NCBI GenBank assembly: GCA_963674945.2
Contig: CAXXWQ010000002.1
Coordinates: 224,001 to 288,000 of the forward strand
Direction: 5' to 3'
Origin: an uncultured Desulfosarcina sp.
GTDB taxonomy: Bacteria > Desulfobacterota > Desulfobacteria > Desulfobacterales > Desulfosarcinaceae
DNA length: 64,000 bases
The position numbers and the translations under genes were made by a program. Position 1 is the first letter of the stretch. Each line of letters opens with the position of its first letter. Below the pieces are notes generated by a model. The model did not search any database. It was given only the letters and a program-made list of their open reading frames with translations, and had not been told where the DNA came from. Shown in pieces: positions 27,396 to 51,736 of the stretch.

Positions 27396-27752
27396 AGCTC
27401 ACCTTACCAGCCCTGGAAATCACAGGTCAACAACCAACGCGACCAGGCCCTTCTTCTAAGGAACTCGGTCATTATTACAAATTAAAAAAATTTAATAAAA
27501 AGCGTTTCCCATTCAATTCATCGACCCAAAAATACAAAAAACGCGCTTCTTTCGTACTACTGTTTTGCCATCGTTGGCCTGGAAAAGCTATTTGGCAAGA
27601 CGGCATTTCTATTGACAGAAACACGATTTTCGACGTACAAGCCAACGTTGAGGAACCGGTTATCATATCCGTATCGTCAACCCATGCCTGCGGATGGAGG
27701 GTGGTCGGAAACTGGCGGCCCGGATCACATTTTCACCAAGGAGGAACCTTAC

Positions 27753-29129
27753 ATGAAAGCGAGAAGCATACTTCTGACCAAAGACGAGATCCCGAAAAAG
27801 TGGTACAATATTCTGGCCGACATCAAATTGAATCCGCCCCTGGGACCCGATGGAAATCCTGTGTCGCCGGATATGCTGGCTCCGGTGTTTCCCATGAATC
27901 TTATCGAGCAGGAGGTGAGTTCGGATCGGTGGATCGACATCCCGGAACCGGTGTTGGATGTACTGGCCCTCTGGCGGCCTTCGCCCTTGACGCGCGCGAC
28001 GGCTTTCGAGAAAGCGTTGGATACGCCTGCGAAGATCTACTACAAACACGAAGGGATGAGCCCCCCGGGCAGTCACAAACCCAACACGGCCGTTCCTCAG
28101 GCGTACTATAATAAAATTTTCGGTATCGAAAACATCACCACCGAGACCGGTGCCGGTCAATGGGGCAGTGCCCTCTCTTTCGCGTGTGCACAGTACGGGT
28201 TGAACTGCAAGGTCTACATGGTGAGAATCAGTTTCGATCAAAAACCCTATCGCAAAGCCATGATGGAAACTTGGGGTGGAAAGTGCATTGCCTCGCCCAG
28301 CAGTGAAACCAAAGCCGGTCGAGAGGCGTTGGAGAGAGATCCCGATACGCCCGGCAGCCTGGGCATCGCCATCTCCGAGGCCGTTGAGGCCGCGGTCAGC
28401 GATACCAGCGGGAAAACCCGGTACTCTTTGGGCAGCGTCCTCAACCACGTCATGCTCCACCAGACCGTCATCGGCTTGGAAGCCAAAAAGCAATTTGAGA
28501 TTGCCGGCGAATACCCGGACATCGTCATCGGTTGCGCCGGAGGCGGCAGCAACTTCGCCGGCCTGGCCTTTCCCTTCGTTCTGGACAAGATCAATGGCAA
28601 ATCCATCGAGATTTATCCGGTGGAGCCCAAGGCCTGTCCTTCCATGACCCGGGCACCTTTTGCCTATGATCACGGTGATACCGCCGGTTACACGCCTCTT
28701 TTGCCCATGCACAGCCTCGGACACAATTTTGTGCCGGCGCCTATCCATGCTGGAGGATTACGGTATCACGGCATGGCGCCCACGGTCAGCCAGTTGGCCA
28801 ACGAGGGGTTGATCACACCCAAATCGGTGGGCCAGATGGCTTCCTATGAGGCCGGTGTCCTCTGGGCCCGCACCGAAGGGTTTATCCCCGCACCGGAAAC
28901 CACAAACGCCCTGGCCCAGGTGGTGGCGGAAGCGAAGCTGGCCAAAGAAGAGGGCAAGGAGAAAACCATCGTGGTCAACTTCAGCGGACACGGCCTTCTT
29001 GACTTAGGGGCTTACGAAAAATATTTCTCGGGAGAACTCTTCGATTATACACTGGATGATGCCGATATCGAGAAATCCACAGAAGTTCTCAAGAACTACC
29101 CCAAACCGCAGGACTTAAAGAGTATCTGA
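27753..29129 (+). CDS. trpB2: Tryptophan synthase beta-like protein TrpB2
   Basis: [54 protein letters not shown]. Confidence 0.93.
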
Positions 29130-33351: not shown

Positions 33352-33551
33352 ATGGGCAAAAGCGGTATATTGTCCATGGACAGAATGCGGCACCGATCCA
33401 AAGATCACCCGCAGACAGGTGCCCGAATGGATCGATCCCACACGATTGCATAGATTTGTTAAAGCAGGGTAATCCCCGCTGTGTCAATATTTATCACGAT
33501 GGGCGGTGCGTGCCTTGCCCATATCGTCGGATGATCGAAACCAACGGTGAG

Positions 33552-33650
33552 CGCTCAGCTTCTCGTAATTAGCCCGTTTCTATTGAGTACTGATCAACAA
33601 TTTTTTGAAATTATGCTGCTAACAGCCAATCGCTCAATTCGGGAAAACAA
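33552..33650. repeat. Element family A, copy 3 (partial)
   Basis: tcagcttctcgtaatt (inverse of the copy 1 end) and tttgaaattatgctgctaa..aatcgctcaatt. Confidence 0.55.
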
Positions 33651-33698
33651 GAACCAAAAATTCCGATTCTTTTCAAACCAGAACGGCCACTTCTTGTT

Positions 33699-34064
33699 TC
33701 AATAGCCGATGACTTTTTCGTAGGCCTCCCTGCTGCTCTTGCAGGCGATGCAGAATCTGGCCACCGGACGGGCTTTGAGCCTATTTATGGAAATCGGCTC
33801 TTCACAGTCTTCGCAAATGCCATAGGTACCGGCGTCGATGGCGTTAAGGCTGTTTTTGATTTTACTGATCAGGCGGCTCTCCCGGCTGCGAATGCGATAG
33901 GCGTTGTTTCTGGATAATTCCGATGTGGCGCGGTCCAATGGGTCGGCTTGGGCATCCGGATCGGATCGAACCAACTCCAAGACTGTGTCCTCCGCCTTTT
34001 CAAGCAAGTGCGCCAGTTCCGCCTCGAGTATCTGGCGAAAAAATTCGAGATCTTTCTTTTTCAT
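33699..34064 (-). CDS. dksA: DksA/TraR C4 zinc-finger protein
   Basis: DPLDRA coiled-coil tip; YGICEDC..RLKARP...CIAC. Confidence 0.85.
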   Translation of the reverse strand: MKKKDLEFFRQILEAELAHLLEKAEDTVLELVRSDPDAQADPLDRATSELSRNNAYRIRSRESRLISKIKNSLNAIDAGTYGICEDCEEPISINRLKARPVARFCIACKSSREAYEKVIGY

Positions 34065-34160
34065 GGCCCATCCTCTCTGTTCGGTGTTTTGGCGTTGACG
34101 CGACCGGTCGATTGCTGCCATCCGATAATCATCATGAAACGGCCGTATCCATCCGTTTTT

Positions 34161-34424
34161 TTACTCCGCATAGGGAAGTGCATCGAGCAACTCAAATTTT
34201 TTGATGTTGATCATGCGGTGCGCTTTCTTGCTCGTTTTCACAAAGCCCACGGTCCGTATCGGTCTGGTCACCAGATCCAGGAAACGTCCGCTGTTTTCAA
34301 TGCGATACTCTTCATCATCCGTGGCAAATAGCGATACCTGGGAAACCTGGTCGTGTTCATCCCATGCACAGGGTGTAACGATGCCGGTTAGGGTTCGTAT
34401 GGAATCATTTGTCTTCTTTTTCAT
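34161..34424 (-). CDS. Small hypothetical protein
   Basis: 87-aa ORF with AAGGAG SD; GIVTP..WD motif; downstream of a sigma-54 site. Confidence 0.7.
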   Translation of the reverse strand: MKKKTNDSIRTLTGIVTPCAWDEHDQVSQVSLFATDDEEYRIENSGRFLDLVTRPIRTVGFVKTSKKAHRMINIKKFELLDALPYAE

Positions 34425-34453
34425 GGTGACTCCTTCGGGTTTGTTCGCATACG

Positions 34454-34469
34454 AGCAATAGATGGGCCA
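34454..34469 (-). promoter_or_regulatory. Sigma-54 (-24/-12) promoter
   Basis: TGGCCC-ATCTA-TTGCT matches TGGCAC-N5-TTGCW, 30 nt upstream of ATG 34424. Confidence 0.7.
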
Positions 34470-34757
34470 AAAATATAACATGTTTAAATCATATTAAATA
34501 TTTGATAAGTTTGGGGCTCGTGATGGCAAAGGGCCCAAAAATCGGAATCAATGGTTCCGAATTTTTTCCCGGTTCGCCATCCGAAATGGTGAAGTGGGAA
34601 AAGTAACGGGAGGATTTTTTCTAACCATTCGTGATGATTGATAAAATAAAAAAGAAAAAAATGTCTGATATCGGAGACATCTGTCATGGAATTTGCTATG
34701 GACGTTTTTTAACATGATTGGACCGATCCGTGTCCATGGCACCAGAAAAGGGGCGGA

Positions 34758-35858
34758 ATGATGTCTACGGGAAACGATCATATCACGGAGCCGTTTGGTC
34801 TGATGGACGGGGCATCCGGAATGTTTGCGCAGATTCAACAGGACGTGAACCGGCAGCGGGAAATCACCATCGATTCTTCCCAGCCACTGGAAATGCGGTT
34901 GGAAGCCTACGAAGATATCATCGATTCGGAGGTCGGCGACACCGCGTTTATCCGGGCGCGCAATATCGAGCGGGAGACCGGCCTTCGCCAGATTTTTCTG
35001 AAGTTCGAAGGAGGCAATCCCACCGGTACGCAAAAGGACCGAATCGCCTTTGCCCAGGCCATGGATGCGCTGCGACGCGGATTCGATACCATCTCGGTGG
35101 CCACCTGCGGTAACTTCGGGGTGGCCCAGGCATTGGCAGCGTCCCTTGCCGGCATTCGTTGCGTGGTTTTTATTCCTAAAAATTACCATACCCGGCGTGT
35201 CGGTGAGATAGAAGCGTTGGGTGCACGGATCGAGCGGGTGGGAGAGGATTACGAGGAGGCGGTGAAGGCAGCCGTAAAGCGGGCGGAAAAAGAGGACTGG
35301 TACGACGCCAATCCCGGCGGTCGCAATACGATCTTGCAATTGGGGGCCTACGGCGGCATCTCCTATGAGTTGTACGACGAACTGGGCGATGCGCCGGCCG
35401 CGGTTGCCGCACCGGTCTCCAACGGAACCACATTCGCCGGAATATTCAAAGGATTTGCCAGCTTGTACCGACGGGGCAAGACCTCCCGCATGCCAAAGAT
35501 GGTGGCGGGGTCCTCTTTCAGGAAGAATCCCATCATTCAGGCGGCTCTTAAGAACAAGCCCGCCTGCGAGGACCTCAAACCGGATCGAATTCGGGAAACG
35601 CAGGTCAACGAACCGCTGATCAACTGGCATGCCATCGACGGCAACCTGGCCCTGCGCGCCATTCGCGAAACTGACGGATGGGCCGGTGACGCATCGGACA
35701 AGTCCATGCGCTGGTGTTCCAAATTGATTCGCGAAAGAGAAGGGCTGGATGTCCTGCCCGCCTCCACGGCCGGACTCATCGCCCTCATCGAGCGTCACAA
35801 AACCAATCCTTTGCCCAACGACAGATACGTTGTCGTGTTGACGGGGAGAAAATCATGA
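34758..35858 (+). CDS. PLP-dependent fold-type II enzyme (threonine synthase-like)
   Basis: LKFEGGNPTGTQKDR (Schiff-base Lys), ATCGNFG, PVSNGT, LPASTAG, VVLTG. Confidence 0.88.
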   Translation: MMSTGNDHITEPFGLMDGASGMFAQIQQDVNRQREITIDSSQPLEMRLEAYEDIIDSEVGDTAFIRARNIERETGLRQIFLKFEGGNPTGTQKDRIAFAQAMDALRRGFDTISVATCGNFGVAQALAASLAGIRCVVFIPKNYHTRRVGEIEALGARIERVGEDYEEAVKAAVKRAEKEDWYDANPGGRNTILQLGAYGGISYELYDELGDAPAAVAAPVSNGTTFAGIFKGFASLYRRGKTSRMPKMVAGSSFRKNPIIQAALKNKPACEDLKPDRIRETQVNEPLINWHAIDGNLALRAIRETDGWAGDASDKSMRWCSKLIREREGLDVLPASTAGLIALIERHKTNPLPNDRYVVVLTGRKS

Positions 35859-36934
35859 GACCGGAAGGAAACGCCATCGTCTATTGTGAAGGCGCATTTG
35901 CCACCCTGAACGGCAAAACGGCACACGGCCTGGTGCGTTTTTGCCGAAGATACCGGATTATCGCCGTGGTGGATACCCGTTACGCGGGAGCCGATGCCGG
36001 AGAAGTCCTGGACGGTAAGAAGAACGGGATCTCCGTGGTGGGATCCATCGAGGCGGCCGTGGACATGGCAGATCGTGCCGGAACCAAGGCCACCCACCTG
36101 GTGATCGGCATCGCGCCGGACGGCGGGCGTTTGTCGAAAGATGCCCGCCAGGATGTGGTCCGGGCCATCGGTCTCGGATTGAACGTGGACTGCGGCCTCC
36201 ATGATTTTCTGTCCGAAGACAATGAGATCGCGGAAAAGGCCCGTGAGTGCGGTGTCAGCCTCCGGGATATCCGCAAGCCACCGCAGCGAAAGGATCTTCA
36301 CTTTTTTTCCGGCAGGATCGAATCGGTACAGGCGCTTACAATCGCCATCCTGGGAACCGATTCGGCCGTGGGCAAACGGACAACGGCCTGGCTTCTGGTG
36401 CAGGCGCTGGAGAGGCGCGGTTACCGGGCCGAGATGATCGGAACCGGGCAGACCGCGTGGATGCAGGGAGCGCGCTACGGAATGATTCTGGATTCCCTGG
36501 TCAACGATTTTGTCTCCGGTGAGATCGAACATGCCGTTTGCCGGGCCTGGGAGGAACAGCGACCTGACGTCATCGTCATCGAAGGGCAGGGAAGCTTGAT
36601 GAACCCGGCCTACCCGGGCGGTTTCGAGATACTGGCGGCGGGGCGGCCGGACATCGTAATTCTGCAACACGCCCCGGCCCGGAGAGACTACGACGGTTTT
36701 CCCGGCTATCCCATTCACCCCCTGTCCAGGCAGATTCAGGCCATCGAGATCCTGTCGGGAAAGCCGGTTGTTGCCGTTACCATTAACCATGAAAATCTTT
36801 CCGACGAACAGATCCCTTCGATTCTGGGTGCCATCGAGACGGTGGTGGGGCTCCCGGCATTCGATTCCCTTCGCGACGGGGGGGACTCGTTGGCCGAGGT
36901 ATTGGTTCCCCGTATTCCGAAAGGAGAACGTTGA
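35855..36934 (+). CDS. DUF1611 P-loop protein (DgcN-like)
   Basis: GKTAHGLVR, GLHDFL, GTDSAVGKRTT, TGQT, DFVSGEIE, IEGQGSL. Confidence 0.9.
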   Translation: MRPEGNAIVYCEGAFATLNGKTAHGLVRFCRRYRIIAVVDTRYAGADAGEVLDGKKNGISVVGSIEAAVDMADRAGTKATHLVIGIAPDGGRLSKDARQDVVRAIGLGLNVDCGLHDFLSEDNEIAEKARECGVSLRDIRKPPQRKDLHFFSGRIESVQALTIAILGTDSAVGKRTTAWLLVQALERRGYRAEMIGTGQTAWMQGARYGMILDSLVNDFVSGEIEHAVCRAWEEQRPDVIVIEGQGSLMNPAYPGGFEILAAGRPDIVILQHAPARRDYDGFPGYPIHPLSRQIQAIEILSGKPVVAVTINHENLSDEQIPSILGAIETVVGLPAFDSLRDGGDSLAEVLVPRIPKGER

Positions 36935-39297
36935 CCATGTCGGATGATACTTCTACGATTTCTTCTTTCGACGACCCATTGGAAACGCTCGTTGTTTTCG
37001 ATCGGTTGGTGGTCGGCCCCGTAAAGCTGTCGCCTCGCCGGCTGGTGGCCCCCTATCGCCTGGAATGGGATGGAAAAACGGAACAGACGGAACTGATCTA
37101 CAATTACGAAGAGGATGTATTCGATCGCCGATCACCTGAATCAAGGAACCTGGCCGCCATGATCGCCGCCCAGGTGGCCCTGAATTACGGTCTCTTCTGT
37201 CGCAAGATTGTCTTCCATGGACACTTCGATAAAACCGACCGTCAATTTCTCCGTGAGATGGCCGAAAATACCGCCCGGGAGATTTTCGTAAAGAAGTTTA
37301 TAGAGCCCAATCCCTTTCTGGTGGGTGACGCGGTGGGGCTGCCGGCAGTCAAGCCCAGGGCCTATCTTAGGGCGAAACTTTACTTTCCTGAAAAGGTTCG
37401 CGGTGATGGATTTCACAGGTGGAAGACGGATAAGGGCCGCTACTGTGTACTTTCTTCCGGTGGCAAGGACAGCCTGCTCAGTTATGGCCTGCTCGACGAA
37501 CTGGGAAAAGACGTCCATCCGATTTTCGTCAACGAGTCGGGGCGTCACTGGTTCACCGCCTTGAATGCCTATCGCCATTTCCGGGACAATATCGCCAACA
37601 CGGCCCGGGTCTGGGTCAATGCCGACCGTCTCTATGCCTGGATGCTCCGCAGGATGCCCTTTATCCGAAAAGACTTCTCCAGTGTTCGTGCGGACGAATA
37701 TCCCATCAGACTTTGGACGGTGGCGGTGTTTCTCTTCGGTGTTCTTCCATTGATGCGTAAACGGGAGGTGGGGAGCCTCGTCATCGGAGACGAATTCGAT
37801 ACCTCCCGGCGGATCACCACCTCCGGTATTCGCCACTATGACGGATTGTACGATCAGAGCATCTGGTTCGATCAGCAGCTTACCCGATATTTCCATCACA
37901 AAGGGTGGTCCATCGTCCAATTCTCCCTATTGCGGCCCCTTTCCGAACTCTTGATCGAGAAAATTCTGGTCAAGCGCTATCCCCATCTCCAGACACATCA
38001 GATGTCCTGCCATGCCACCCACAAGGACGCAGAACGCGTCTTGCCGTGCGGCAGATGCGAAAAATGCCGTCGCATCGTAGGCATGCTCACCGCACTGGGA
38101 GAAGATCCCGGCCGATGTGGCTATACCGTTCAGCAGGTGGCGGATTGCTTTGCCGCCCTGTTCGAAAAGGGCCTCTACAGCCAACCCTCGGCAGAGGCGG
38201 GACACCTGTTTTTTTTACTGTCACGATCGGCTGCGGCAGTGTCCATGCCCGCCGATGTCGCAAGATCCGGCAGGGCATGCCCTGAAATCATGCAGTTGCG
38301 TTTCGATCCCAAGGTCTCTCCCATGGATGGTATCCCTCTGGATCTGCGGGCGGCGTTGTATGCTCTGTTCCTCGACCATGCCGATGGCGCGGTTCAGCGC
38401 CGCGGGTCCGCCTGGCAGGCGGTGGATGCGTTGTCCCATCCGGATTTGAAAAATCCCTTCGGTTTCGAATCGACACAGGGTGAGAAAAAGTCGATTTTTC
38501 AGTCAGAGGCGGCCATGGACACCTATTTCTGGGGAGAGTTGTGCTGGCCTGATGCCGACAATCGACTTCAGATCGTGGATACGGCACTTTTACCGGTGGG
38601 AGCCATCGAACAGCACGGCCCTCATCTGCCCCTGGACACGGACGCCCACGATGCGGCCTATCTGGCCAGGCGGGTGGCAGAGGATTGCAGTGATCCCAAA
38701 CCGCTGGTGCTCCCCCTCATCGCCTACGGCGTATCCTATCATCACGAGGCGTTCAAGGGCACCATCAGCATCAACAACGACACCTTGTCCCAGCTGGTAT
38801 ACGACGTGGGGATCAGCCTGGCCAAAAACGGCATCCAGAAACTGGTGATCATCAACGGTCATGGGGGAAACGCCCCTTCGTTGAACTTCGCCGCCCAGCG
38901 CATCAACCAGGATGCCCGCATCTTCGTCTGTGTGGATACCGGCGAGACCAGCGATGTGGACGTGGACGACCTCATCGAGACACCCAACGATGTCCACGCC
39001 GGGGAGATCGAGACCAGCACGAGCCTTGCCAATCGGCCGGAAGGAGTGCGCATGGATCGTCTTCACATGGAGGTTCCCGAATTTACCAGTCGTTATCTGG
39101 ATTTTTCTTCCAAGCGAGGGGTCGCCTGGTATGCTCATACCCACAAAATATCCAACAGCGGTGTCATGGGGGATCCCACCAAGGCCAGTGTCGAGAAGGG
39201 AGAGAAAATTTGGGCCGCCATGGTCGGGCATCTGGTGAATTTCGTGGATCAGATCAAGAGTATGACGCTTGAAGAGATCTACCAGAAGAAATATTGA
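36931..39297 (+). CDS. Fusion of a PP-loop adenine-nucleotide alpha-hydrolase domain (QueC/MurL-like) and a creatininase-family amidohydrolase
   Basis: [19 protein letters not shown]; from about 38515 [31 protein letters not shown]. Start is TTG 36931 or ATG 36937. Confidence 0.85.
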
Positions 39298-39299
39298 AC

Positions 39300-40367
39300 A
39301 TGAGAATTAAGAGATTAGAAGCCTGGCCGGTCACCATGAGACTGGCAGAACCGTATACCATCGCCTACGAAACGATTACCTCGGCCACAAACGTGTTTCT
39401 GCGGATCGAGACCACCAGCGGCATCGTCGGGTATGGGTGTTCGGCACCGGATGCGGCGGTGACCGGAGAGACCGCCGAAACGGTAATGGATGCCCATCGC
39501 CGGGTCATCGACCCAGCCTTTACGGGTTCCGATCCCCTGCGACCGGTCATGCTGACCGAGCGGATTCGCTCCCAACTGAAAGCTGAGCCCGCGGCCATGG
39601 CCATGGCGGACATGGCTCTTTTCGACATCATGGGAAAAGTAGCCGGTCTTCCTCTTTTCCGAATGCTGGGGGGATATCGGGATCGCATGCGTACCAGCGT
39701 CACCATCGGGATTCTTCCCGTCCGCGAAACCGTGGACAGGGCATCGGCATACGTGAGCCAGGGCTTTCGGGCGTTGAAGATCAAGGGGGGCGGTGACGTG
39801 GACCTGGACATCGAGCGGATGCTCCGGGTGCGGGAATCCGTGGGTGAGAAGATCGCGCTTCGTTTCGACGCCAACCAGGGGTATGACGAGGCGGACACCC
39901 TTCGTTTCGTCATCGCAGTGCGGCCGGTGCGGCTGGAACTGTTGGAACAGCCCACGCCTCGGGCCAAAGAGCGTCTTTTGGGGAGGGTAACCCGGCAGGT
40001 GACCCTTCCCGTCATGGCCGACGAGAGCCTCATGAATCTTTCGGATGCCCTTCGGTTGGCGAGAAGAGAGATCGTAGACATGGTCAACATCAAACTCATG
40101 AAGGTGGGCGGAATCAACGAGGCCCTCAAGATCAACGCCGTAGCCCGCGCAGCCGACCTGGATGTGATGGTCGGCTGCATGGATGAATCGGCCTTTGCCA
40201 TTGCCGCCGGGCTTCATTTTGCCCTGGCACGGCCCAATGTCGCCTATGCGGACCTGGACGGTCATCTGGATCTCGTGGAGGATCCCGCTTTTGGTGCCGT
40301 CATTTTGAAAAAAGGGATCTTGTATCCCACGGGGCGACCAGGGATCGGTCTGGATCCCCGTCATTGA
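39300..40367 (+). CDS. Dipeptide epimerase (L-Ala-D/L-Glu epimerase-like, enolase superfamily)
   Basis: [41 protein letters not shown]. Confidence 0.9.
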
Positions 40368-40489
40368 CGACTTCGGTAAAAATCCGATATCTGCGTTATG
40401 CTTCATCCCTCGTCACTGCGGCGTATTTATGTATACGACTCATTCCTCGGGATTCGCAAGCCTTGCTCTCGGACTTTTATCGAAGTCGT
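40367..40489. repeat. Palindromic MITE/REP-like element family C, copy 1
   Basis: Terminal inverted repeats acgacttcggtaaaa/ttttatcgaagtcgt; homologous to 61203-61296. Confidence 0.8.
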
Positions 40490-40544
40490 TCAAAATCAAT
40501 TTCGTTTGTATCGTTACTTTGAACGAGGAAAAGAGAAGATAGAC

Positions 40545-41807
40545 ATGATCCAAGCCATGGGCGCCTTCGGCAGTTTGTTCGCCGCTGTTTTTATGTTATT
40601 GACCGGAAACGGTCTGCTCAACACCTTACTCAGTACGCGGATGGCCATGGACGGGTATCCCATGGTCACCATGGGTGTCGTCCTCTCCTGCTATTTTTCG
40701 GGGCTGTTGGCCGGTTCATTCGTCTGCCATCGTCTCATTCAACGGATCGGGCACATTCGCGCCTTTGCCGTCTTCGCAGCCGGTACAACAGTCATAGCTC
40801 TCTCACATGGACTATTTCTGTCTGCTTGGGTTTGGGGTGGGCTGCGCTTTTTCTGCGGTGTCACCTCCTTCGGACTGTTCATGACCATAGAAAGCTGGCT
40901 CAACGAATGCACCGATTCGGGATATCGGGGGCGGGTTTTCTCCATCTATATGATTCTCTGCTATTTGGGCATCGGCGTCGGTCAGCAGCTCCTCAATGCC
41001 GGGGACATCCAGGGTAACGAGCTTTTCCTCATCGCCGGGATCATCTTCGCCCTGTGCCTGATTCCCGTGGCGGCCACCGAAGGTGTGCATCCGAAGTTAC
41101 CCGGTCGAGCACGGTTCAGTTTTACAGCCATTTTTCGAAGGGCACCCTTGGGCATGCTTGGCAGCGTGGCTGCCGGGCTCACCAATAGTGCCTTTTACGC
41201 CATGATGCCGGTGGTGTGCAACGCCGTGGGCCTGAGCCATCATCAGCTCTCCTGGATCATGTCCATCACGGTATTTGCCGGCCTGTCCGCCCAATGGATC
41301 GTTGGGGCCGTTTCGGACCGGTTTGACCGAACCCTGGTCCTTACCATTGTTGTTATCGCCATCGTGGCAGTCAGTGGATTCATGTTCATCTACAAAGATT
41401 CCTCGTTTGTTGGACTGGCTTTCAAAATGGCGCTGGTCGGCGCCCTCATCTTTTCCGTCTATCCACTTGCCGTGGCCCGGACCCACGATATCTTCGGTGG
41501 TCAGGATGCGGTTGCCGTCAGCACCGGCCTGTTGTTCGCCTATAGTATCGGAGCCAGCGTGAGCCCTCTCCTTGCGTCGGGGATGATGACCCTGGTTCAC
41601 ACGCCGTTGGGTCTTTTCGCCTTCTGGTGCTTGGTTTATAGTATTTTTACCGGGTTCATCTTCTATTTGAGAAAAAAGGAAAAAATAGAAATCGTACCTG
41701 TGGATGATCAGGTCTCCTTCGTTCCGATGAAGAGTACCTCTCCGGTGGCCATGGTACTGGATCCGCGAACCGATCCTGAGGATGATGGTAAAGAGCATTT
41801 AGTGTGA
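40545..41807 (+). CDS. MFS transporter (YcaD-like)
   Basis: About 12 hydrophobic segments; RIGHIRAFA, IESWLN, RGRVFSIY, SDRFDR. Confidence 0.9.
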   Translation: MIQAMGAFGSLFAAVFMLLTGNGLLNTLLSTRMAMDGYPMVTMGVVLSCYFSGLLAGSFVCHRLIQRIGHIRAFAVFAAGTTVIALSHGLFLSAWVWGGLRFFCGVTSFGLFMTIESWLNECTDSGYRGRVFSIYMILCYLGIGVGQQLLNAGDIQGNELFLIAGIIFALCLIPVAATEGVHPKLPGRARFSFTAIFRRAPLGMLGSVAAGLTNSAFYAMMPVVCNAVGLSHHQLSWIMSITVFAGLSAQWIVGAVSDRFDRTLVLTIVVIAIVAVSGFMFIYKDSSFVGLAFKMALVGALIFSVYPLAVARTHDIFGGQDAVAVSTGLLFAYSIGASVSPLLASGMMTLVHTPLGLFAFWCLVYSIFTGFIFYLRKKEKIEIVPVDDQVSFVPMKSTSPVAMVLDPRTDPEDDGKEHLV

Positions 41808-41877
41808 GATGGTTCATCTTGTCCTACATAGCATGGTTGAAAAGAGAGTATTGAACAGCCGAATTCGCAGGCTCCCG

Positions 41878-42759
41878 TTACTGAACCACTACTCGCATTC
41901 GACCGATGTTCTGGACGAGGGCGTAGGGTGTTTCGGTATCCCCCTCCCTCTGCGAAGCGACGCGAATCACGGGAAAATATGTCCCAGGTTCCGAATAGGC
42001 ATACGTGGCAGATAACATCACCTGATTGCCCGATGTGTCGATATTGCCAAGAGGCGCCGCAACCGGATCGGTGCCGGCACCCTCGAAATCCCATTGCGCG
42101 GAAACAACCTTTCCCGTATTTGGCGGTACTTCGATGACCGCCGAGAACGCGACAGTCTCTCCGGCCGCAATCTCAACGCGTTCTTTTCCATCGGCACTCA
42201 GGGTTACAACTGGCTGAATGCCGCTATGCTCCGCAGCTGTCTCAGGTACTTCCACTTGGCCATCGATCACCTCATACGTAGTACTCATAGGTGGCGGAAC
42301 GCCGTCTTCGACCCATGCACTTAGCTCACGCAGCGCCTGTTCTATCGCTCCTATGTAGTCAACGGTGTGCGCTTGGGCGATAAGATCACTCTCCTCAGGC
42401 GTTTTGTGCTGGGCATGATCGATAAACCAGAGTCGGTGATTATCGTCAAGGTTCGATCCCAGCGCTTCTTCGACTCGCGAACGATACCAGTCGGCCTGCC
42501 AGGGGAGGGAATCCATATCCATCAATGTCTGCACCACGATTATCTTTCCATCAAATTGACCCGTCTGGTGAGACCCTGCCGCATTGAATGCACCAACCGG
42601 ACCCAGCAGGACATCTCTCTGTGGGTATATCGGAGTGCCATCGGGTTTTCTGAATTGATCCCATACATACATGTCAGGTGTCGGAATATAGTGACGGTGA
42701 TAGGTTTGCAGGGCGAGATAATCCGAAGAAAACATTCTATTCAACCTCGATTCCGACAC
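41878..42759 (-). pseudogene. C-terminal remnant of an alpha/beta-hydrolase (tannase-like) plus PKD-domain protein
   Basis: GKIIVVQ..D, HRLWFIDHAQH, WVEDGVPP, WDFEG, YSEPGTYFP; begins abruptly, overlapping the upstream gene's end, with no SD or signal peptide. Confidence 0.55.
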
Positions 42760-44903: not shown

Positions 44904-46010
44904 ATGAAAAAAGGAAGCAGCTGCATTTTCGCAATCCTCATCGCCGTGATTGCGTTGACCTCAATCGACACCCAGGCCTTCGAGATCATCACCCGTGAGA
45001 TGATGGAAAGAGAGGTCGTCACGGAAGTCGATCTGATTCGAACCGTGGACAATTTCATCATCCTGTTCGATACATCCGGTACGACCAACCAAATGGTGCC
45101 CGGCACCTCCATTTCGAAAATCCAGGCCGCCAAGGCATTTTTGAAGGAACGCAATAGCTGGCTGCCGGAGCTGGGCTTTGAGGCGGGTCTGTACGAGTAC
45201 ACCAACAATGAGACCCTTGCCGGAACCTTCAAGGAGATCTACGGGATGAGGCCGTATGACCGCGAATCTTTCGCTGCGGCCATCGACCAACTGCCGGAAA
45301 AGGGCCAGGGACCGGCCATGCTGGGGGAAGGTCTTCGTGGCCTGCGCAAGGTGCTCGCCGGTCTTACCGGAAAGACGGCGGTCATCATGTTTACCGACGG
45401 CAGCTTCACGGTCAATCGCGGCACCAAGCGTCCCTTGCAGATCGCCCAGGAGATCGCCGCACAGCACGATGTCTGTTTCTATCTGATCAGCAGTGCCACG
45501 GAATCGGTCAATGTCCAGTTGCTGGAAGCGGTTTCTAAGGTCAACGCCTGCTCCCGCGTCGTTCCCATCCAGCTGTTTATAGAATATCCGCAATATCTGG
45601 GCGGCGCCCTGTTTACCGTCAGATCAACCAGCTATGAACGTCTGCGGCCAACCACCAAAGTCGTCGGTTTCGTCGCCCAGGATATGCTGTTCGATTTTGA
45701 CAGTCCGCAGATCCGGGAAGATTATTTCGAAAAACTCGGCATGCTGGGCGATTACCTGAAAAAAAATCCCAAGGCTTACGTGGTGGCTGCGGGCTTCACC
45801 GACGACACCGGCGACGAGGATTACAATCTGGCGCTCTCAAAGCGGCGTGTCTCCAGCGTCAAGGATCATCTCGTAACAAACTATGGAATCGATCCGGACC
45901 GTATCGTGACCCTGTGGTTCGGTGGGTTTAATCCCGTCGCCGATAACGGCACCCCCCCAGGCCGGCAGCGAAACCGCCGGGTTGAGGTTGCCGTGGGCAC
46001 CGGAAACTAA
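44904..46010 (+). CDS. vWA-like plus OmpA peptidoglycan-binding domain protein
   Basis: Signal peptide; FDTSGT (MIDAS-like), FTDG; FDFDS, GFTDDTG...YN..LSKRR, NRRVE. Confidence 0.88.
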   Translation: MKKGSSCIFAILIAVIALTSIDTQAFEIITREMMEREVVTEVDLIRTVDNFIILFDTSGTTNQMVPGTSISKIQAAKAFLKERNSWLPELGFEAGLYEYTNNETLAGTFKEIYGMRPYDRESFAAAIDQLPEKGQGPAMLGEGLRGLRKVLAGLTGKTAVIMFTDGSFTVNRGTKRPLQIAQEIAAQHDVCFYLISSATESVNVQLLEAVSKVNACSRVVPIQLFIEYPQYLGGALFTVRSTSYERLRPTTKVVGFVAQDMLFDFDSPQIREDYFEKLGMLGDYLKKNPKAYVVAAGFTDDTGDEDYNLALSKRRVSSVKDHLVTNYGIDPDRIVTLWFGGFNPVADNGTPPGRQRNRRVEVAVGTGN

Positions 46011-46029
46011 CCAATCCTGGAGAATCCTC

Positions 46030-47559
46030 ATGGGAAAATCTTTCACAATCAAACTCGCTCTACTCCTTATCTTCTCGGTGGTGGGGAGCGGGTGTGTCCA
46101 CACCGTCGCCCCTCCCCAAATGCGCATGACCACACAGATTCCTGAATCGATCATCGTTCCGGACAAGATCGAGACAAGATTGGGTACACTCGAGTTCTTC
46201 GACGGGTTCCCTGCGGATGAAACCGTCCAGAAAATGCATGACTATCTCTATTTTCACAGGGCCGTCGATGTGTTTCTGGATGAGATGAGCGCGGCTTCCA
46301 TTTTCGCAATTCGTGAGGGACTCAAAAGTGTCGGGGTCCATGAATGCCACCAGATGGCCCTCTTCGAAAGCCTGATGGATTCTAAAGCGCTGTGGCTGAC
46401 CGCCAATACGGAAACGGTATATGCCTCCAATTTTCTCGATCTGAAAAAAGACGGGCCCGTCGTGATCGAATCTCCGCCCAATGTCCTGGGCATTTTAGAC
46501 GACATGTGGATGCGCTATGTGGGCGATATCGGCAATGCCGGCCCGGACAAAGGACAGGGCGGCAAATTCCTGATCCTTCCTCCCGGGTTCGACGGCGATG
46601 TTCCTGAGGGTTACCACGTGTTTCGGTCCAGAACGTACGGCGTGTGGTTTATCGTCAGGGGGTTTTTCGTCGATGGCGATCCCGGACCGGCAGTGGAAAG
46701 CTTCCGGCGTGACCTCCGCATCTATCCTCTCTCAGCAGCCGACAATCCTCCGGCCATGGCGTTTATAAATGCCTCGGGTGTGCCTCACAATACCATCCAC
46801 GCCAATAATCATATGTTTTATGAAGAGCTGAACGCCGTTGTGCAGGAGGAACATGAGGACGCCATCGATGCCGAAAGAAAAGGCAGACTGGCCCTGCTGG
46901 GCATCATCAAAGGCCATGCCTTCAACCCGGCTGAGCGCCTGAAGTTGATCATGGATGAATCGGCCTATACGGGCGCCGCCATTGCCAGGACCCTCTCCTG
47001 GGCATCCACCGACCCAACGGTCTTTTTCTACGAGGATGATCCCACCTGGTTCAGCGCCTTTGCCATTGGAAATCATGAGTTCTTGTCCAAAGAGGGATGG
47101 CTGCACCGGGATGCCCGCACCATGTTCATGTACAACGCCATCGGCATCACCCCGGCCATGGCGGTGGCCATGCCGGGCGTCGGCTCTCAATATGCTGCCG
47201 CGGCAAAGGATTCGGAAGGGAACTGGCTGGATGGGAGCAAAACCTACAAACTGACATTGCCGCCGAATGTGCCGGCCAAGGATTTCTGGTCGGTGGTGTT
47301 GTATGACCCCCAGACCCGCTCCATGCTGCAGAGCGATCAACAGTTCCCGAGCCTCAACAGCCAGAGTGGAAAGGTTGAGATAAACGATGACGGTTCAACC
47401 GATGTTTATTTCGGTCCCGAAGCCCCGGCATACAAGGAGAACAATTGGGTGCAGACGGTTTCCGGTAAAGGTTTCTGGCTCATTCTTCGGTTGTACGGTC
47501 CTTTGGAACCCTGGTTTGACAAAACCTGGCGGCCGGGAAAAATTGAATTGATTGAGTAA
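46030..47559 (+). CDS. DUF1254/DUF1214 lipoprotein
   Basis: Lipobox GSGC; LTANTETVY, GPDKGQGGKFL, GSQYA, FWSVVLYD, LRLYGPLEPWF. Confidence 0.9.
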   Translation: MGKSFTIKLALLLIFSVVGSGCVHTVAPPQMRMTTQIPESIIVPDKIETRLGTLEFFDGFPADETVQKMHDYLYFHRAVDVFLDEMSAASIFAIREGLKSVGVHECHQMALFESLMDSKALWLTANTETVYASNFLDLKKDGPVVIESPPNVLGILDDMWMRYVGDIGNAGPDKGQGGKFLILPPGFDGDVPEGYHVFRSRTYGVWFIVRGFFVDGDPGPAVESFRRDLRIYPLSAADNPPAMAFINASGVPHNTIHANNHMFYEELNAVVQEEHEDAIDAERKGRLALLGIIKGHAFNPAERLKLIMDESAYTGAAIARTLSWASTDPTVFFYEDDPTWFSAFAIGNHEFLSKEGWLHRDARTMFMYNAIGITPAMAVAMPGVGSQYAAAAKDSEGNWLDGSKTYKLTLPPNVPAKDFWSVVLYDPQTRSMLQSDQQFPSLNSQSGKVEINDDGSTDVYFGPEAPAYKENNWVQTVSGKGFWLILRLYGPLEPWFDKTWRPGKIELIE

Positions 47560-47589
47560 GAAAAAAGTACACGAAAGGGAGAGATCAAT

Positions 47590-49128
47590 ATGAATGATTT
47601 CAAAAAAATGAGCAAAGGATTTCTCGTTGCCTGCATGGTCACTCTTTTCCTGTCAAGCATCGTCGGCGCAAAAGAAATTCCAAAGGGCTATAACACACCG
47701 ATTCCCAGTTCCATCATGACACCGGACAAGGTGAAAACCCGCATTGGAACGCTCGAATTCTTTGACGGTGTCCCGTCCAAAGAAACAGCGAAAGTGGCTC
47801 TTGATAACTTGACCTTTCTTCGCGGCGTGGAGGCCTTTCTCAACGGCGTGCCCATGGCATCCATCCATGCGCTTGTGGAAGGATATAAAAGTATCGGGGT
47901 CACGGAAGCGAACCATATGATCGTGACCGATAAATTGATGGACTCAAATCCGCTCTTTCTCACAGCCAACACGGATACGGTGTATGCCTTCAGTTTCTTC
48001 GATCTGGAGAAAACCGGGCCGCTGGTCATTGAAGTCCCGCCGGGAACAGGGCCGGGAACGGTCAATGACGCCTATTTCCGTTTTGTTGTGGATATGGGAG
48101 CGCCGGGTCCGGATCGAGGCAAAGGCGGAAAATACCTGATCCTTCCTCCGGGTTATGAGAAAGAGGCGCCAGAGGGGTACTTTGTCGCGAAATCGCCAAG
48201 CTACATCAACCTGTTCGTTCTCAGAGGATTTCTTGTGGACGGCAAACCCGATTCAGCCGCCAAAATGTTCTCCGAGCAGGTGCATGTCTATCCGCTCTCC
48301 CAAAAAGACAACCCGCCCAAGATGGTGATCACCTCGGGATCGGGCGTCTCATACAACACCATCCACGCCAATGACTTCACCTTTTATGAAGAGATAAACG
48401 ATGTGCTGCAAAAAGAACCCGTTGATTTCATCGATCCGGAACTGCGCGGCCTGTTCGCCGGTATCGGCCTGCAAAAAGGCAAAGAATTCAAGCCGACGCC
48501 AGAGCTTAAAAAGATCCTGACCGATGCGGTGGCCGTGGCCAATGCCACGGCACGCGCCTTGATTTTCCATACTCCCCAGAAAGAGGCCTACCTGTATGAG
48601 AACTCCTATTGGAAGACAGCCTTTATCGGCGGCAACCATGAGTGGCTCAAAGATGAAGGCACGGGCGGACGCTACCTGGATGCACGCACCCTCTTTTTCT
48701 ATGGTGCGACGGTGAACACCCCTGCCATGGTGATGCAAATGGTGGGTGTGGGATCGCAATACGCCATGATTACCCAGGACAGTAAGGGGAACGTTCTGGA
48801 TGGCGGGAAAACCTATAAGTTGAATATCCCGGCCAACGTACCGGCCAAGGATTTCTGGTCGGTTGTGATCTATGACCCGCAAACGCGATCAGAACTACAA
48901 ACCTCCAATCCCTTCCCGAGCAAAAACAGCGAGGCCGACAAGATGGTCGCCAATGCCGACGGGTCCATCGACCTCTACTTCGGGCCTGAAGCACCCAAAG
49001 GCAAAGAAAACAACTGGATAGAAACCGTGCCCGACAAATCCTGGTTTCCGATCCTGCGCCTTTATGGCCCCCTGGAACCATGGTTTGAGAAGACCTGGAA
49101 ACCTGGTGAGATCGAGCTGGTCAAATAA
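47590..49128 (+). CDS. DUF1254/DUF1214 exported protein, tandem paralogue
   Basis: Same motifs: LTANTDTVY, GPDRGKGGKYL, LRLYGPLEPWF. Confidence 0.9.
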   Translation: MNDFKKMSKGFLVACMVTLFLSSIVGAKEIPKGYNTPIPSSIMTPDKVKTRIGTLEFFDGVPSKETAKVALDNLTFLRGVEAFLNGVPMASIHALVEGYKSIGVTEANHMIVTDKLMDSNPLFLTANTDTVYAFSFFDLEKTGPLVIEVPPGTGPGTVNDAYFRFVVDMGAPGPDRGKGGKYLILPPGYEKEAPEGYFVAKSPSYINLFVLRGFLVDGKPDSAAKMFSEQVHVYPLSQKDNPPKMVITSGSGVSYNTIHANDFTFYEEINDVLQKEPVDFIDPELRGLFAGIGLQKGKEFKPTPELKKILTDAVAVANATARALIFHTPQKEAYLYENSYWKTAFIGGNHEWLKDEGTGGRYLDARTLFFYGATVNTPAMVMQMVGVGSQYAMITQDSKGNVLDGGKTYKLNIPANVPAKDFWSVVIYDPQTRSELQTSNPFPSKNSEADKMVANADGSIDLYFGPEAPKGKENNWIETVPDKSWFPILRLYGPLEPWFEKTWKPGEIELVK

Positions 49129-49261
49129 CTGCCGCAGGTTGTCCCAGGAATCGGCAACAGCCTGCTGCCCTATAGGCCACGGTCAGATTAACGTGTGACA
49201 TATTGCTGCTCCAATACAGGGATCAACGGTTCGAGAGAAATTATACCATTAAGGAGGTATC

Positions 49262-51736
49262 ATGAAAGTATTGAAGACCGTAATTATCTTTTTAGGAATT
49301 CTCTTCATTGCGTCCTGCAATCAGGCGGATGTCGCTCAAAAAACTGAAGACAGCAATCAGGTGGCCGTCGATCAAAAGATCGGAGACAGCAACGCCATCC
49401 CCTATCCGTTGGAGGAATGGAAAGGAGTCCAGGGCAAAACACTGGCGGACTCGAAACCCGATTTTATCGGACAACCCAAAGCGCCTGAAGGGGCTCCCAA
49501 TGTCCTGGTGATCATGCTGGATGATGCCGGTTATTCGAGTGCGACATCCTACGGGGGCGTCATGCGCACCCCCACGTTCGACCGTCTGGGGGACGAAGGC
49601 ATTCGATACACGCACATGTCCGTGGCTGCGGTTTGTTCACCCACCCGGGGCTCGCTGTTGACCGGCTACAATATTCACCAGATCGGCACCGGCATCATTT
49701 CAGAGTTTGCAACCGGCTATCCGGGGTACAATTCACAGATCGACTACACCACCCCATCCATTGCCAAGATTTTAACCGACAATGGATATGCCACGGCGGC
49801 TTTCGGCAAATGGCACAACACCCCCATGGAAGAGGCCTCGCCTGCCGGTCCTTTCGAGAGCTGGCCCACGGGCATCTGGGGGTTCGAGTATTTCTGGGGC
49901 TTTTTGGGCGGCGAGACCAACCAGTTCCACCCCTTATTATACGAAAACACCACGGCCATTGAAACTCCGAAAACCAATGCCGATGGATCGGAATTCCATT
50001 TATCCCAGGGTATGGCCGACCAGGCCATCAAATGGCTGGACAACTGGAAAGGGCTGCGGGATGTGCCTTTCTTTGTCTACTACACGCCGGGTGCGGTTCA
50101 TGCGCCCATCCAGGTACCCAAAGAGTGGCGCGACAAGTACAAGGGACAGTTCGATGAAGGCTGGCATGCCTATAGGGCCCAGCAACTTGAACGCCAGAAA
50201 AAGCTGGGTCTGGTTCCCGAAGATGCCAAAATGGTTGATTGGCCTGAATCCATTCCCAAATGGGATTCCTTCAGCGAGGAGGGGAAACGGTATTTATCAC
50301 GGCAGATGGAGGTCAATGCCGCTTTTCTGGAACACGTCGATTATCACATCGGACGGGTTATCGACCATATCGAGGAAATGGGCGAGCTGGACAACACCCT
50401 GGTGATTTATCTGACCGCGGACAACGGCTGCACCGCTGAAGGAACGCCCACCGGAACATTTTCCGAGCTGTTGATGCAGAACGGGTTCCCGCCACTGACC
50501 ATGGAACAGCAGCTGGAAAAACTCGAAGAGTTCGGAGGAATGGATGCCTGGGGCGGGCCGCACCTGGCCAACCATTATTCGGTCGGATGGGCGTATGCCT
50601 CATCCACCCCGTTCCAGTGGACCAAGCAGATGGCGTCCCATTTCGGCGGGACCATGTCCGCCACGGCCATACGATACCCCAAAGCCATTAAGGCCAGAGG
50701 AGAATGGCGAAGACAATTTCAGAACGTTACTGATTTGGTTCCCACGATTCTGGAAGTGACCGGTGTTCCTGCTCCCGATTATGTAAACGGACAGAAAAGA
50801 AAAGAATATCCGGGTAAATCGCTGACCTATGCATGGAACAATCCCGATGCCAAAACCAACCATCCCACCCAGTATTTTGAAATGCTGGGCTTCATGGGAC
50901 TGTATCATGACGGCTGGACCCTCTCCGGGAAGCCTTATCGTATTCCCTGGTCAGTTGATCCCGCGGCCCTTGCAAACTTCGATCCCCTGAATACAGAATG
51001 GGAACTGTATAATATTAATGAAGACCCCATCCAGCAGGTGAATGTGGCGGACAAGTACCCGAAAAAAGTTAAAGAACTGGATAAACTGTTCTGGGAAGAG
51101 GCGGACAAGTACGATGTGTATCCGATTGGTGGATCAATGGGTAAAATGCTGCAACCGGAATCCAATGCGCAGCAGGCAGCAAAACGGCATTGGGAGTTGA
51201 CGCCCAATGTATACCGGGTGCCCGAACTGGCAGGGCCCGAGATCAAATCCACCAACTATGAGGTCAATGCCTACATCACGGCCGACGAAACGACCGAGGG
51301 CGTGATTTATGCGGTGGGCGAGCATATCGGCGGCCAGGCCCTGTTTATCAAAGACGGGAAACTGAGATACAGCTATTCCACGCTTGGTCTGTACTGGCAC
51401 GATTTCGACGGCGATGTGAAAATACCGCACGGTGATATTAAGATCACCTTGAAACATACCATGAAAGAGCAAAAACTGAACGGCCCCTCTACCGTTGAAT
51501 TCTTCATCAACGATAAAAAGGTGGGTGAAATGGACATTACCGCGACTGTATATGGTTCTTATACAGCTCACGAAACGTTCGATATCGGCCGTGATGAAGG
51601 CATGCCGGTGAATGAGGAATATGCAGACCAGGGTAAATTTGAATTTACCCCGGGCCAGTTGCACAAGGTGGTGTTCGACATCAAGAATCCCGACGACCAG
51701 GAAACGAGTGCCACTGAGTACAGCATTATTGACTAG
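49262..51736 (+). CDS. Cys-type arylsulfatase, lipoprotein
   Basis: Lipobox IASC; PNVLVIMLDD, CSPTRGSLLTG, GKWH, DNG. Confidence 0.93.
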   Translation: MKVLKTVIIFLGILFIASCNQADVAQKTEDSNQVAVDQKIGDSNAIPYPLEEWKGVQGKTLADSKPDFIGQPKAPEGAPNVLVIMLDDAGYSSATSYGGVMRTPTFDRLGDEGIRYTHMSVAAVCSPTRGSLLTGYNIHQIGTGIISEFATGYPGYNSQIDYTTPSIAKILTDNGYATAAFGKWHNTPMEEASPAGPFESWPTGIWGFEYFWGFLGGETNQFHPLLYENTTAIETPKTNADGSEFHLSQGMADQAIKWLDNWKGLRDVPFFVYYTPGAVHAPIQVPKEWRDKYKGQFDEGWHAYRAQQLERQKKLGLVPEDAKMVDWPESIPKWDSFSEEGKRYLSRQMEVNAAFLEHVDYHIGRVIDHIEEMGELDNTLVIYLTADNGCTAEGTPTGTFSELLMQNGFPPLTMEQQLEKLEEFGGMDAWGGPHLANHYSVGWAYASSTPFQWTKQMASHFGGTMSATAIRYPKAIKARGEWRRQFQNVTDLVPTILEVTGVPAPDYVNGQKRKEYPGKSLTYAWNNPDAKTNHPTQYFEMLGFMGLYHDGWTLSGKPYRIPWSVDPAALANFDPLNTEWELYNINEDPIQQVNVADKYPKKVKELDKLFWEEADKYDVYPIGGSMGKMLQPESNAQQAAKRHWELTPNVYRVPELAGPEIKSTNYEVNAYITADETTEGVIYAVGEHIGGQALFIKDGKLRYSYSTLGLYWHDFDGDVKIPHGDIKITLKHTMKEQKLNGPSTVEFFINDKKVGEMDITATVYGSYTAHETFDIGRDEGMPVNEEYADQGKFEFTPGQLHKVVFDIKNPDDQETSATEYSIID

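Follow-up and report, generated by a model that had tools for sequence, protein, structure and literature searches.

A conserved and modular operon occupies positions 34758 to 41807 of the window, by which we mean the whole 64,000-nucleotide stretch of DNA analysed here, taken from an uncultured Desulfosarcina sp. (GenBank assembly GCA_963674945.2, contig CAXXWQ010000002.1, positions 224,001 to 288,000 of the forward strand). The open reading frame (ORF) list of the window places five same-strand ORFs in this interval, which encode a pyridoxal phosphate (PLP) enzyme (gene A), a DUF1611 protein (gene B), a 788-residue protein whose two halves are called N and C below, an enolase-superfamily epimerase (gene D), and a transporter of the major facilitator superfamily (MFS; gene E). 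We propose, at a probability of roughly 0.4, that this operon is a handedness-correcting funnel for one amino acid X, probably a basic one, in which X would be acylated, flipped, deacylated, and finally committed by a PLP-dependent elimination. What the data show directly is the linkage and conservation of the genes, their folds, catalytic motifs that are intact, smaller gene sets elsewhere, and the loss of the glutamate and phosphate pockets.

The first four genes are tightly coupled, as the original prediction had read from the sequence. Gene A (34758..35858, + strand, 366 residues) overlaps gene B (35855..36934, +) through ATGA at 35855, gene B overlaps the fused N-C gene (36931..39297, +) through TTGA at 36931, and gene D (39300..40367, +) follows after a gap of 2 nt before 39300. 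The 788 residues of the fusion are counted from the TTG, with an in-frame ATG at 36937; domain N spans 36931..38499 (+; ~520 residues) and domain C 38518..39297 (+). Pfam agrees with the domain calls made earlier for the PLP enzyme, DUF1611 protein, creatininase, epimerase, and transporter, matching PALP in A, the N- and C-terminal DUF1611 domains in B, creatininase at residues 536–772 only of the 788-residue protein, MR_MLE in D, and MFS_1 in E. The GC content of the cluster resembles that of the remaining window.

The operon is real and conserved, and its gene set is modular with gene A as the hub. The survey covers 54 loci, each from a different genome or contig; 12 of them end less than 500 nt from the cluster and were set aside, leaving 42 uncut loci. 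The order A-B-N-C-D appears in 25 of them (three with E), far above chance, which upholds the earlier idea of a conserved, undescribed amino-acid or N-acyl pathway; ten loci are A-B-D, two A-N-C, two A-B-N, and one each A-B-N-D, A-B-N-C-E, and A alone. Gene A is present in 42/42. Gene B occurs in 39 of the 42, always together with N or D (26 with both, 10 with D only, 3 with N only). Since many loci were gathered via N-C, and about 7 of the 10 A-B-D genomes share flanks and are kin, the set tells which forms exist, not how frequent they are. After clustering of all ORFs of the N-C loci, no broadly shared neighbours other than A, B, and D emerged.

The taxonomic spread is wide and patchy. The nearest N-C relatives come from Desulfosarcina and uncultured deltaproteobacteria (74–77%), and a scan of species genomes returned 22 N-C loci that the record titles place in Desulfobacterota, Bacteroidota, Gemmatimonadota, Eisenbacteria, Planctomycetota, and Bacillota; no N was found on plasmids. 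An even sample of 301 genomes from the window's phylum contains N in 10 (8 close, 2 distant) and A in 8, exactly the 8 with close N, so the co-occurrence elsewhere on which the original prediction had staked the cluster is found. N is present in 11 of 25 genomes drawn from the window's genus, and a Bacteroidota sample holds N in 4/301 and A in 14/301. Ten extra A-bearing Bacteroidota genomes all carry A, B, and D, have no N-C gene, and lack N genome-wide, which rules out A and N as an invariant pair. Five of the ten A-B-D genomes were checked and hold creatininase paralogues at 26–32% or none, and no close C. On the tree of A, the A-B-D forms are scattered among full operons, and a single clade is rejected (p-AU 0.007, by a test that is lenient because the group was chosen from an earlier tree); this scatter suggests that the N-C gene was lost repeatedly in the A-B-D lineages.

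N and C also occur in other arrangements. N is found alone, beside C, or fused to C, and C is a separate gene in Lewinella and Eudoraea loci; by locus, it is unfused in L020-L022 (L022 being Eudoraea adriatica DSM 19308) and in L042. One protein (P0124) is a fusion of DUF1611 with N. Four metagenome contigs, located via a protein placed by NCBI in Thermoplasmatota, have archaeal-type genes alongside A-B-N but neither C nor D; their A-B-N speaks against the muropeptide role that had been suggested as a core function. In one archaeal-type contig, a D-aminoacyl-tRNA deacylase-like gene lies just 5' of A (L044:4026-4829), which may be synteny among kin, and another contig has an ORF of similar size and place (L047:2078-2869), known by size and position only. 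As separate observations, N is fused to an S-adenosylmethionine (SAM)-dependent methyltransferase that replaces the creatininase in one protein (P0123), and gene B is split across two frames near codon 300 in a locus whose creatininase part is also missing (L029:10157-11225, −), by sequence error or decay.

Gene A encodes a fold-type II PLP enzyme of the PRK06381 family that derives from threonine synthase (ThrC) and is likely an elimination enzyme (lyase). It matches PF00291 and scores 406 bits against NF004996 (PRK06381; cut-off 266), a model that archaeal-type A passes with 415 and none of 14 control genomes passes, whereas it reaches 87.9 bits against TIGR00260 (ThrC; cut-off 167.1). The name "threonine synthase" attached to NF004996 is an annotation, not a tested function, and A is not needed for threonine because a true thrC lies elsewhere in the genome (TIGR00260 score 184). 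The model of A (predicted local distance difference test, pLDDT, 86) has ThrC as its closest fold (Z 35.8 to 2zsj, root-mean-square deviation (rmsd) 2.1, 302 residues aligned; next family Z 31.6). The motifs GTQKDR and TCGN, singled out earlier as unusual, are present and family-wide. Across 55 sequences, not all of which come from different genomes, and with Thermus thermophilus ThrC numbering, the Schiff-base Lys93 (GTQK93DR) is kept in 55/55 and equals ThrC Lys61, and the invariant Cys117 (TCGN) aligns with ThrC Thr85. We take ThrC Thr88, Ser155, and Arg160 to be the ligands of the substrate phosphate; in A, the Thr88 position is Phe or Tyr in 54/54, Ser155 has no serine counterpart (Pro or Gly, depending on gap placement), and the Arg160 position is Gln in 51 and Asp in 4 of 55. 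The acids D183, E280, E285, and D294 are invariant. Compared with ThrC (TIGR00260; PDB 2zsj, 1uim), A shares the closest fold and the PLP lysine but differs in its 25–27% identity, its score below the cut-off, its replaced phosphate ligands, its Cys at Thr85, and a chain that ends just after the last strand. From the pocket residues, we infer that A still carries out a gamma or beta elimination as ThrC does, on a substrate whose leaving group is neutral or cationic. The Cys117 position is presumably that of the second base of serine racemase and of an Asp in diaminopropionate lyase, so a racemase or D-specific activity of A is possible. A complex prediction of A with N scored 0.00, which is informative neither way.

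Gene B is a distant relative of DgcN, predicted to be an N-acyltransferase or an ATP-dependent acyl ligase. Its DUF1611 domains (PF07755 and PF17396) are both present, its related structures are PDB 2g0t, 2obn, and 7xrj, and its score against the DgcN family NF041892 is 157.2 with a cut-off of 480 (157.4 for the B of an A-B-D operon). All 49 aligned rows keep the P-loop GxDxxxGK, TGQT, and EGQ unchanged, and the window's B keeps EGQGS; since these rows include three outside paralogues, the motifs do not tell whether B is an acyl-CoA transferase or an ATP-dependent ligase. The D-glutamate route of DgcN and DgcA was reportedly described by Yu et al. in 2023 (EC 2.3.1.312 and EC 5.1.1.25). As set out in the available text of three papers, a DUF1611 protein is encoded with an enolase-family epimerase in a route that acylates, flips, and deacylates the substrate (PMC10845958, PMC11747546, PMC12363236). 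B and D share this pairing and this logic, but both fall far under the family cut-offs, the pocket of D is acidic instead of glutamate-binding, and here the pair always comes with a PLP enzyme and mostly also with the PP-loop/creatininase protein.

Gene D belongs to the enolase-superfamily epimerases of dipeptides or N-acyl amino acids and has an acidic side-chain pocket (E24, D51, D295) together with a DxD motif. The roles of the catalytic lysines of such epimerases are described in the available text of PMC5808125. The best PDB match of D is 3rit (E 3e-70), with GCMDES common to both, and K160, K162, D190, E216, D241, K265, D295, D318, and D320 are kept in 42/42 sequences. The position of YkfB Arg24 is Glu in 39, Gln in 2, and Gly in 1 of the 42, Asp51 is found in 41/42, and Asp295 in 42/42. 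We assume that YkfB Arg24 binds the glutamate side chain and that the D295 position, Ile in the Ala-Glu epimerase, lies in the side-chain pocket; acids at these positions favour a basic side chain over glutamate. Taken with an A that lacks the phosphate ligands of ThrC, this acidic pocket makes D-glutamate an unlikely substrate, and the low scores of B (157 vs 480) and D (154.5 vs 400 for NF042940) run the same way, so that the earlier assignment of B and D to the D-glutamate pair is not borne out. D also misses the cut-offs of NF041118 (217.8 < 500) and NF011708 (95 < 343). With the epimerases of dipeptides in the MLE subgroup (PDB 3rit, 3jva, 1jpm), D shares the two catalytic lysines, three metal ligands, and DxD, but has Glu at the Arg24 position, unlike YkfB and 3rit, and fixed partners A and B. 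Another relative with shared catalytic residues is 2p88, which we take to be an N-succinyl-Arg/Lys racemase. The pocket of D is identical in ten operons without the N-C gene, so the substrate of D is not made by N.

Domain N, judged by profiles and by its model, is a distant relative of MurL and QueC, and this adenine-nucleotide alpha-hydrolase-like domain is predicted to adenylate a carboxylate. The earlier PP-loop call stands on the motif SGGKDS and a confident AlphaFold2 (AF2) model (pLDDT 92.6) with QueC, Cap9, and QatC as its best matches. Neither Pfam (PF06508 included) nor a PDB sequence matched N, a profile search against the PDB gave E 0.04 or worse, and the family has 3016 relatives among 8000 candidates scored and no Pfam model. 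Foldseek listed QatC, QueC, and Cap9 at the top (E 1e-6 to 5e-4), and a wide fold search gave QueC (3bl5; Z 13.1, rmsd 3.0, 188 aligned) and Cap9 (Z 13.0), with the thiolases NcsA, TtuA, YcfA, and LarE at Z 8–9.5; these searches barely probed the first 160 residues. Among 46 homologues, the P-loop is SGGKDS in 40 and SGGKES in 6, and the cysteine site C-x12-CxxCxxC is kept in 46/46. The hallmark of QueC in the available text of PMC13329287 is C(x)8CxxCxxC with YxQxHxxE, VPxRN, and YPDC. N shares SGGxDS, the four-cysteine site, and the core fold (Z 13) with QueC, Cap9, and QatC (PDB 3bl5, 2pg3, 9nto, 9y02), but its cysteine spacing is x12 instead of x8, the three remaining motifs are absent from the window's N, it has an extra 160 N-terminal and 130 C-terminal residues, and no deazaguanine or defence genes lie nearby.

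MurL is the sole named enzyme family whose profile N matches. MurL adenylates N-acylated terminal Glu at the cost of ATP to AMP and inverts it in the direction L to D only (available text of PMC8788868). An Atlas feature search with N returned MurL clusters in 27 of 30 matches (score 0.96), and a sister family is linked to N at 99.7% probability, with 11 of 11 tested proteins of that family matching MurL, as does one of five distant N proteins. MurL was not listed in the fold searches with N, which does not exclude a MurL likeness. N shares with MurL the profile match, a similar size, and the Atlas feature matches, but differs in that no MurD2 or other mur gene is among its conserved neighbours, in its fusion to an amidohydrolase, and in its presence on archaeal-type contigs. 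The sister family itself (e.g., L031:3082-4443, −) comprises about 83 proteins, mostly of deltaproteobacteria, with SFGKDS, four cysteines, and no named neighbour whose function is known. The window's genome has no MurI over the TIGR00067 cut-off, which 7 of 25 genus members pass, and it carries one Asp/Glu racemase-family gene at C4:2756942.

Domain C is a binuclear-metal amidohydrolase of the creatininase fold, and its natural reading is a deacylase or peptidase. It matches PF02633 with 230 bits (E 3e-68); the nearest specific model is MftE (159 < 172), and the creatininase model TIGR04448 lies further off (106 < 235). The metal ligands E31, H33, H36, D42, H115, H160, and E165 are invariant in 12/12 sequences. 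C thus shares fold and metal ligands with the creatininase family (creatinine amidohydrolase, MftE, ArfB), but its motif NGHG[G/D]N (NGHGGN in the window) is that of MftE, not the NGHYEN of creatininase 1q3k, whose Glu we take to be the catalytic one, and it is fused to or beside a PP-loop enzyme.

Assembled into a pathway, the parts would act in four steps. B would N-acylate amino acid X; D, or else N at the expense of ATP, would invert the alpha-carbon of the product; deacylation by C or by a housekeeping enzyme would release the amino acid; and A would commit it through a gamma (or beta) elimination whose leaving group is not phosphate, with a 2-oxo acid plus ammonia or an amine as products. 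The roles of B as acyltransferase, N as adenylating epimerase, and C as deacylase would follow from their relatives, DgcN and MurL for the first two. Every locus with B has N or D, and together with the shorter forms this suggests that N and D are alternatives for inverting the same carbon. X is probably cationic, i.e., lysine, ornithine, 2,4-diaminobutyrate, Dap, or a dipeptide ending in one of these, as the pocket of D suggests. The overall logic would be that of DgcN/DgcA, altered by another substrate, by the option of ATP as the driving force, and by an end step that depends on PLP. Two other gene contexts are in keeping with this proposal. On a Chondrinema plasmid (L048), A stands without B, N, C, or D and is followed by ppk2, an AstE/AspA-family deacylase two genes from A, and a 2OG-Fe(II) oxygenase. 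A 33% identical stand-alone homologue of N (L030:71-3226) lies directly behind genes for a KamA-like radical SAM enzyme and a Ddl-like ATP-grasp ligase, a ligase-plus-epimerase layout that may resemble MurD2-MurL. Apart from this, the L030 trio is a second, unrelated context for N, possibly a beta-amino-acid dipeptide pathway, and ppk2 adjoins A in two Bacteroidota lineages (L048:8881-12495, L010:5020-6900).

We also entertain a broader claim, tentatively and with some doubt: the N family would comprise ATP-driven one-way amino-acid epimerases working outside peptidoglycan, the N-C protein would be a single-chain stereo-inverter able to take the place of an enolase-type racemase, and together with A it would serve an undescribed D-diamino-acid pathway common to sediment bacteria of several phyla and to wall-less archaea.

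Several observations weigh against the proposed funnel. The direction from D to L, i.e., degradation, is its weakest step. The direction of MurL, L to D, is biosynthetic. The likeness of N to MurL amounts to 23 bits (E 2.4e-5) against NF041275, whose cut-off is 700, and to 14–31 bits in its relatives, and among solved structures the nearest to N are ligases that form amides. Both N and D are present at 26 of the 42 loci, an arrangement that redundancy does not account for and that would carry the risk of a futile cycle. No importer or regulator kept beyond the genus is among the conserved neighbours, and the lack of a conserved importer is odd for the catabolism of an outside substrate. The A-N-C form of Lewinella has no operon-type B, just a 42% paralogue. 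The match between the pockets of D and 3rit, presumably a Lys-Arg dipeptide epimerase, is inexact as 3rit keeps Arg24; and the DxD of D, which we assume to bind a free N-terminal amine, would fit a dipeptide better than an N-acetyl amino acid. The roles of the pocket residues in A and D are assumed ones, and the evidence as a whole is that of sequence, model, and neighbourhood.

The main rival, which we regard as unlikely, runs the same enzymes in the biosynthetic direction. A would make an unusual (di)amino acid by beta or gamma replacement, B would acylate it, N would drive it from L to D with ATP, D would be a reversible stand-in, and C would release the D-amino acid or trim the product; the end product, either a D-amino acid or an N-acylated diamino acid, would serve as an osmolyte, signal, or envelope building block. 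A one-way, ATP-spending epimerase such as MurL fits synthesis (available text of PMC8788868), as do the missing importer, the place of the ThrC-derived A at the head of the operon, and ppk2 beside A in L010 and L048, which could recycle AMP or ADP. However, no exporter, carrier, or downstream user is conserved, a reversible D would give no one-way product in the ten A-B-D genomes, and the characterised pairs of DUF1611 proteins and epimerases are degradative. It is quite unlikely that N is an amide ligase like QueC, Cap9, or QatC, joining an adenylated carboxylate with ammonia or an amine to form an amide, dipeptide, lactam, or nitrile, with C in the part of an amidotransferase's glutaminase subunit, supplying the amine or reversing the product, and with D epimerising a dipeptide. 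The top structural matches of N, its existence alone, beside C, or fused, as in amidotransferases such as GMP synthase (available text of PMC13329287), its fusions to DUF1611 and to a methyltransferase, and the DxD of D are all compatible with this. Against it, the catalytic motifs of QueC are all missing from N, D is unchanged where N is lost, and N and D replace each other among the loci with B.

A conventional reading, in which B and D are DgcN and DgcA acting on D-glutamate or on peptidoglycan L-Ala-D-Glu, C is the deacetylase, and A a spare ThrC, or in which N replaces glutamate racemase, is highly improbable. The family-level likeness to DgcN, DgcA, and the Ala-Glu epimerases and the window's genome without a MurI over the cut-off would favour it, but the family cut-offs are missed widely, D has Glu for Arg24 and Asp295 for Ile, the ThrC Thr88 and Arg160 positions of A are F/Y (54/54) and Q/D (55/55), and the archaeal-type loci carry A-B-N. 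N as a MurI replacement is ruled out, since MurI over the TIGR00067 cut-off is uncorrelated with N in the genus (3 of 11 members with N, 4 of 14 without). The least probable reading is a sulfur relay in which Cys117 of A passes cysteine sulfur to N, giving a thiocarboxylate or thioamide as in LarE or YcfA, or in which A uses a thioacid nucleophile. Cys117 is invariant beside the PLP site, thiolases appear in the fold list of N, and A is present in all uncut loci with close N; yet A and Cys117 are kept in ten genomes without N, the thiolase Z scores lie well under those of QueC and Cap9, the four cysteines of N fit a QueC-type zinc site, and no sulfur carrier gene is nearby.

The overall logic of the proposed funnel has a precedent, and its parts and substrate do not. 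No description of the operon was found in the literature searched, which included the available text of bioRxiv 10.1101/2022.03.03.481873 and PMC10845958, with most subscription journals and all supplements outside its coverage. The main text of PMC13329287, as far as available, mentions no creatininase, MurL, DUF1611, or epimerase, and its supplementary neighbourhood tables could mention the operon. If true, the proposal would give functions to PRK06381, labelled threonine synthase, to a large non-DgcN branch of DUF1611, and to a MurL/QueC-like family; it would place ATP-driven epimerisation, as catalysed by MurL, outside cell-wall synthesis as well, and D-amino-acid turnover in sediments would gain a route. 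A stereo-inverter that works one way might also find use in biocatalysis. The question can be tested directly with the natural deletion series (A-B-D, A-B-N, A-N-C, and full) and with harmless carriers in culture, namely Eudoraea adriatica (N and C unfused), Lewinella cohaerens, and Desulfosarcina alkanivorans.

The MFS transporter counted by the original prediction as part of the system is an accessory. Gene E (PRK03633-like; 40545..41807, +) follows D after a gap of ~177 nt, with its likely start at 40545 where relatives align. It matches PF07690 and stays below the cut-off of NF002962 (134 < 361). Among congener loci, 4 of 9 have it next to the cluster, as do none of 3 loci outside the genus and 4 of the 42 uncut loci overall, all from the window's genus, which rules it out as a core member.

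Upstream of A, an imperfect sigma-54-like box (TGTCAT-N5-TTGCT; 34682..34697, +) is a candidate promoter. Its -24 GG is not intact; the word lies 75–78 nt before the start of A in the window and, by pattern, in two of eight congeners, with weaker look-alikes in others. Scans for sigma-70 promoters and terminators gave no excess over chance (2 vs 4.4 and 10 vs 7.6), and Rfam had no matches in 33400-42000. A palindrome, TCGGAA-N7-TTCCGA at 34542-34560, recurs in similar form at the equivalent position of most of the eight congener loci and may be an activator site; it sits between gene A and divergent genes for a small ORF, dksA, and a sigma-54 activator. The small ORF (106 residues; 34161-34481, −) has no Pfam or NCBIfam match and precedes the dksA-like gene (33699-34064, −). 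Congeners keep this pair, and the window's genome carries it a second time at C4:1679296-1680032; the genome has at least four dksA-like genes in all. Further off, tandem DUF1254/DUF1214 proteins followed by a sulfatase occupy 45922-51736 of the window, and a TrpB-like PLP enzyme gene at 27612-29129, matched by PALP only and presumably of the TrpB2 type, adjoins groEL/groES.

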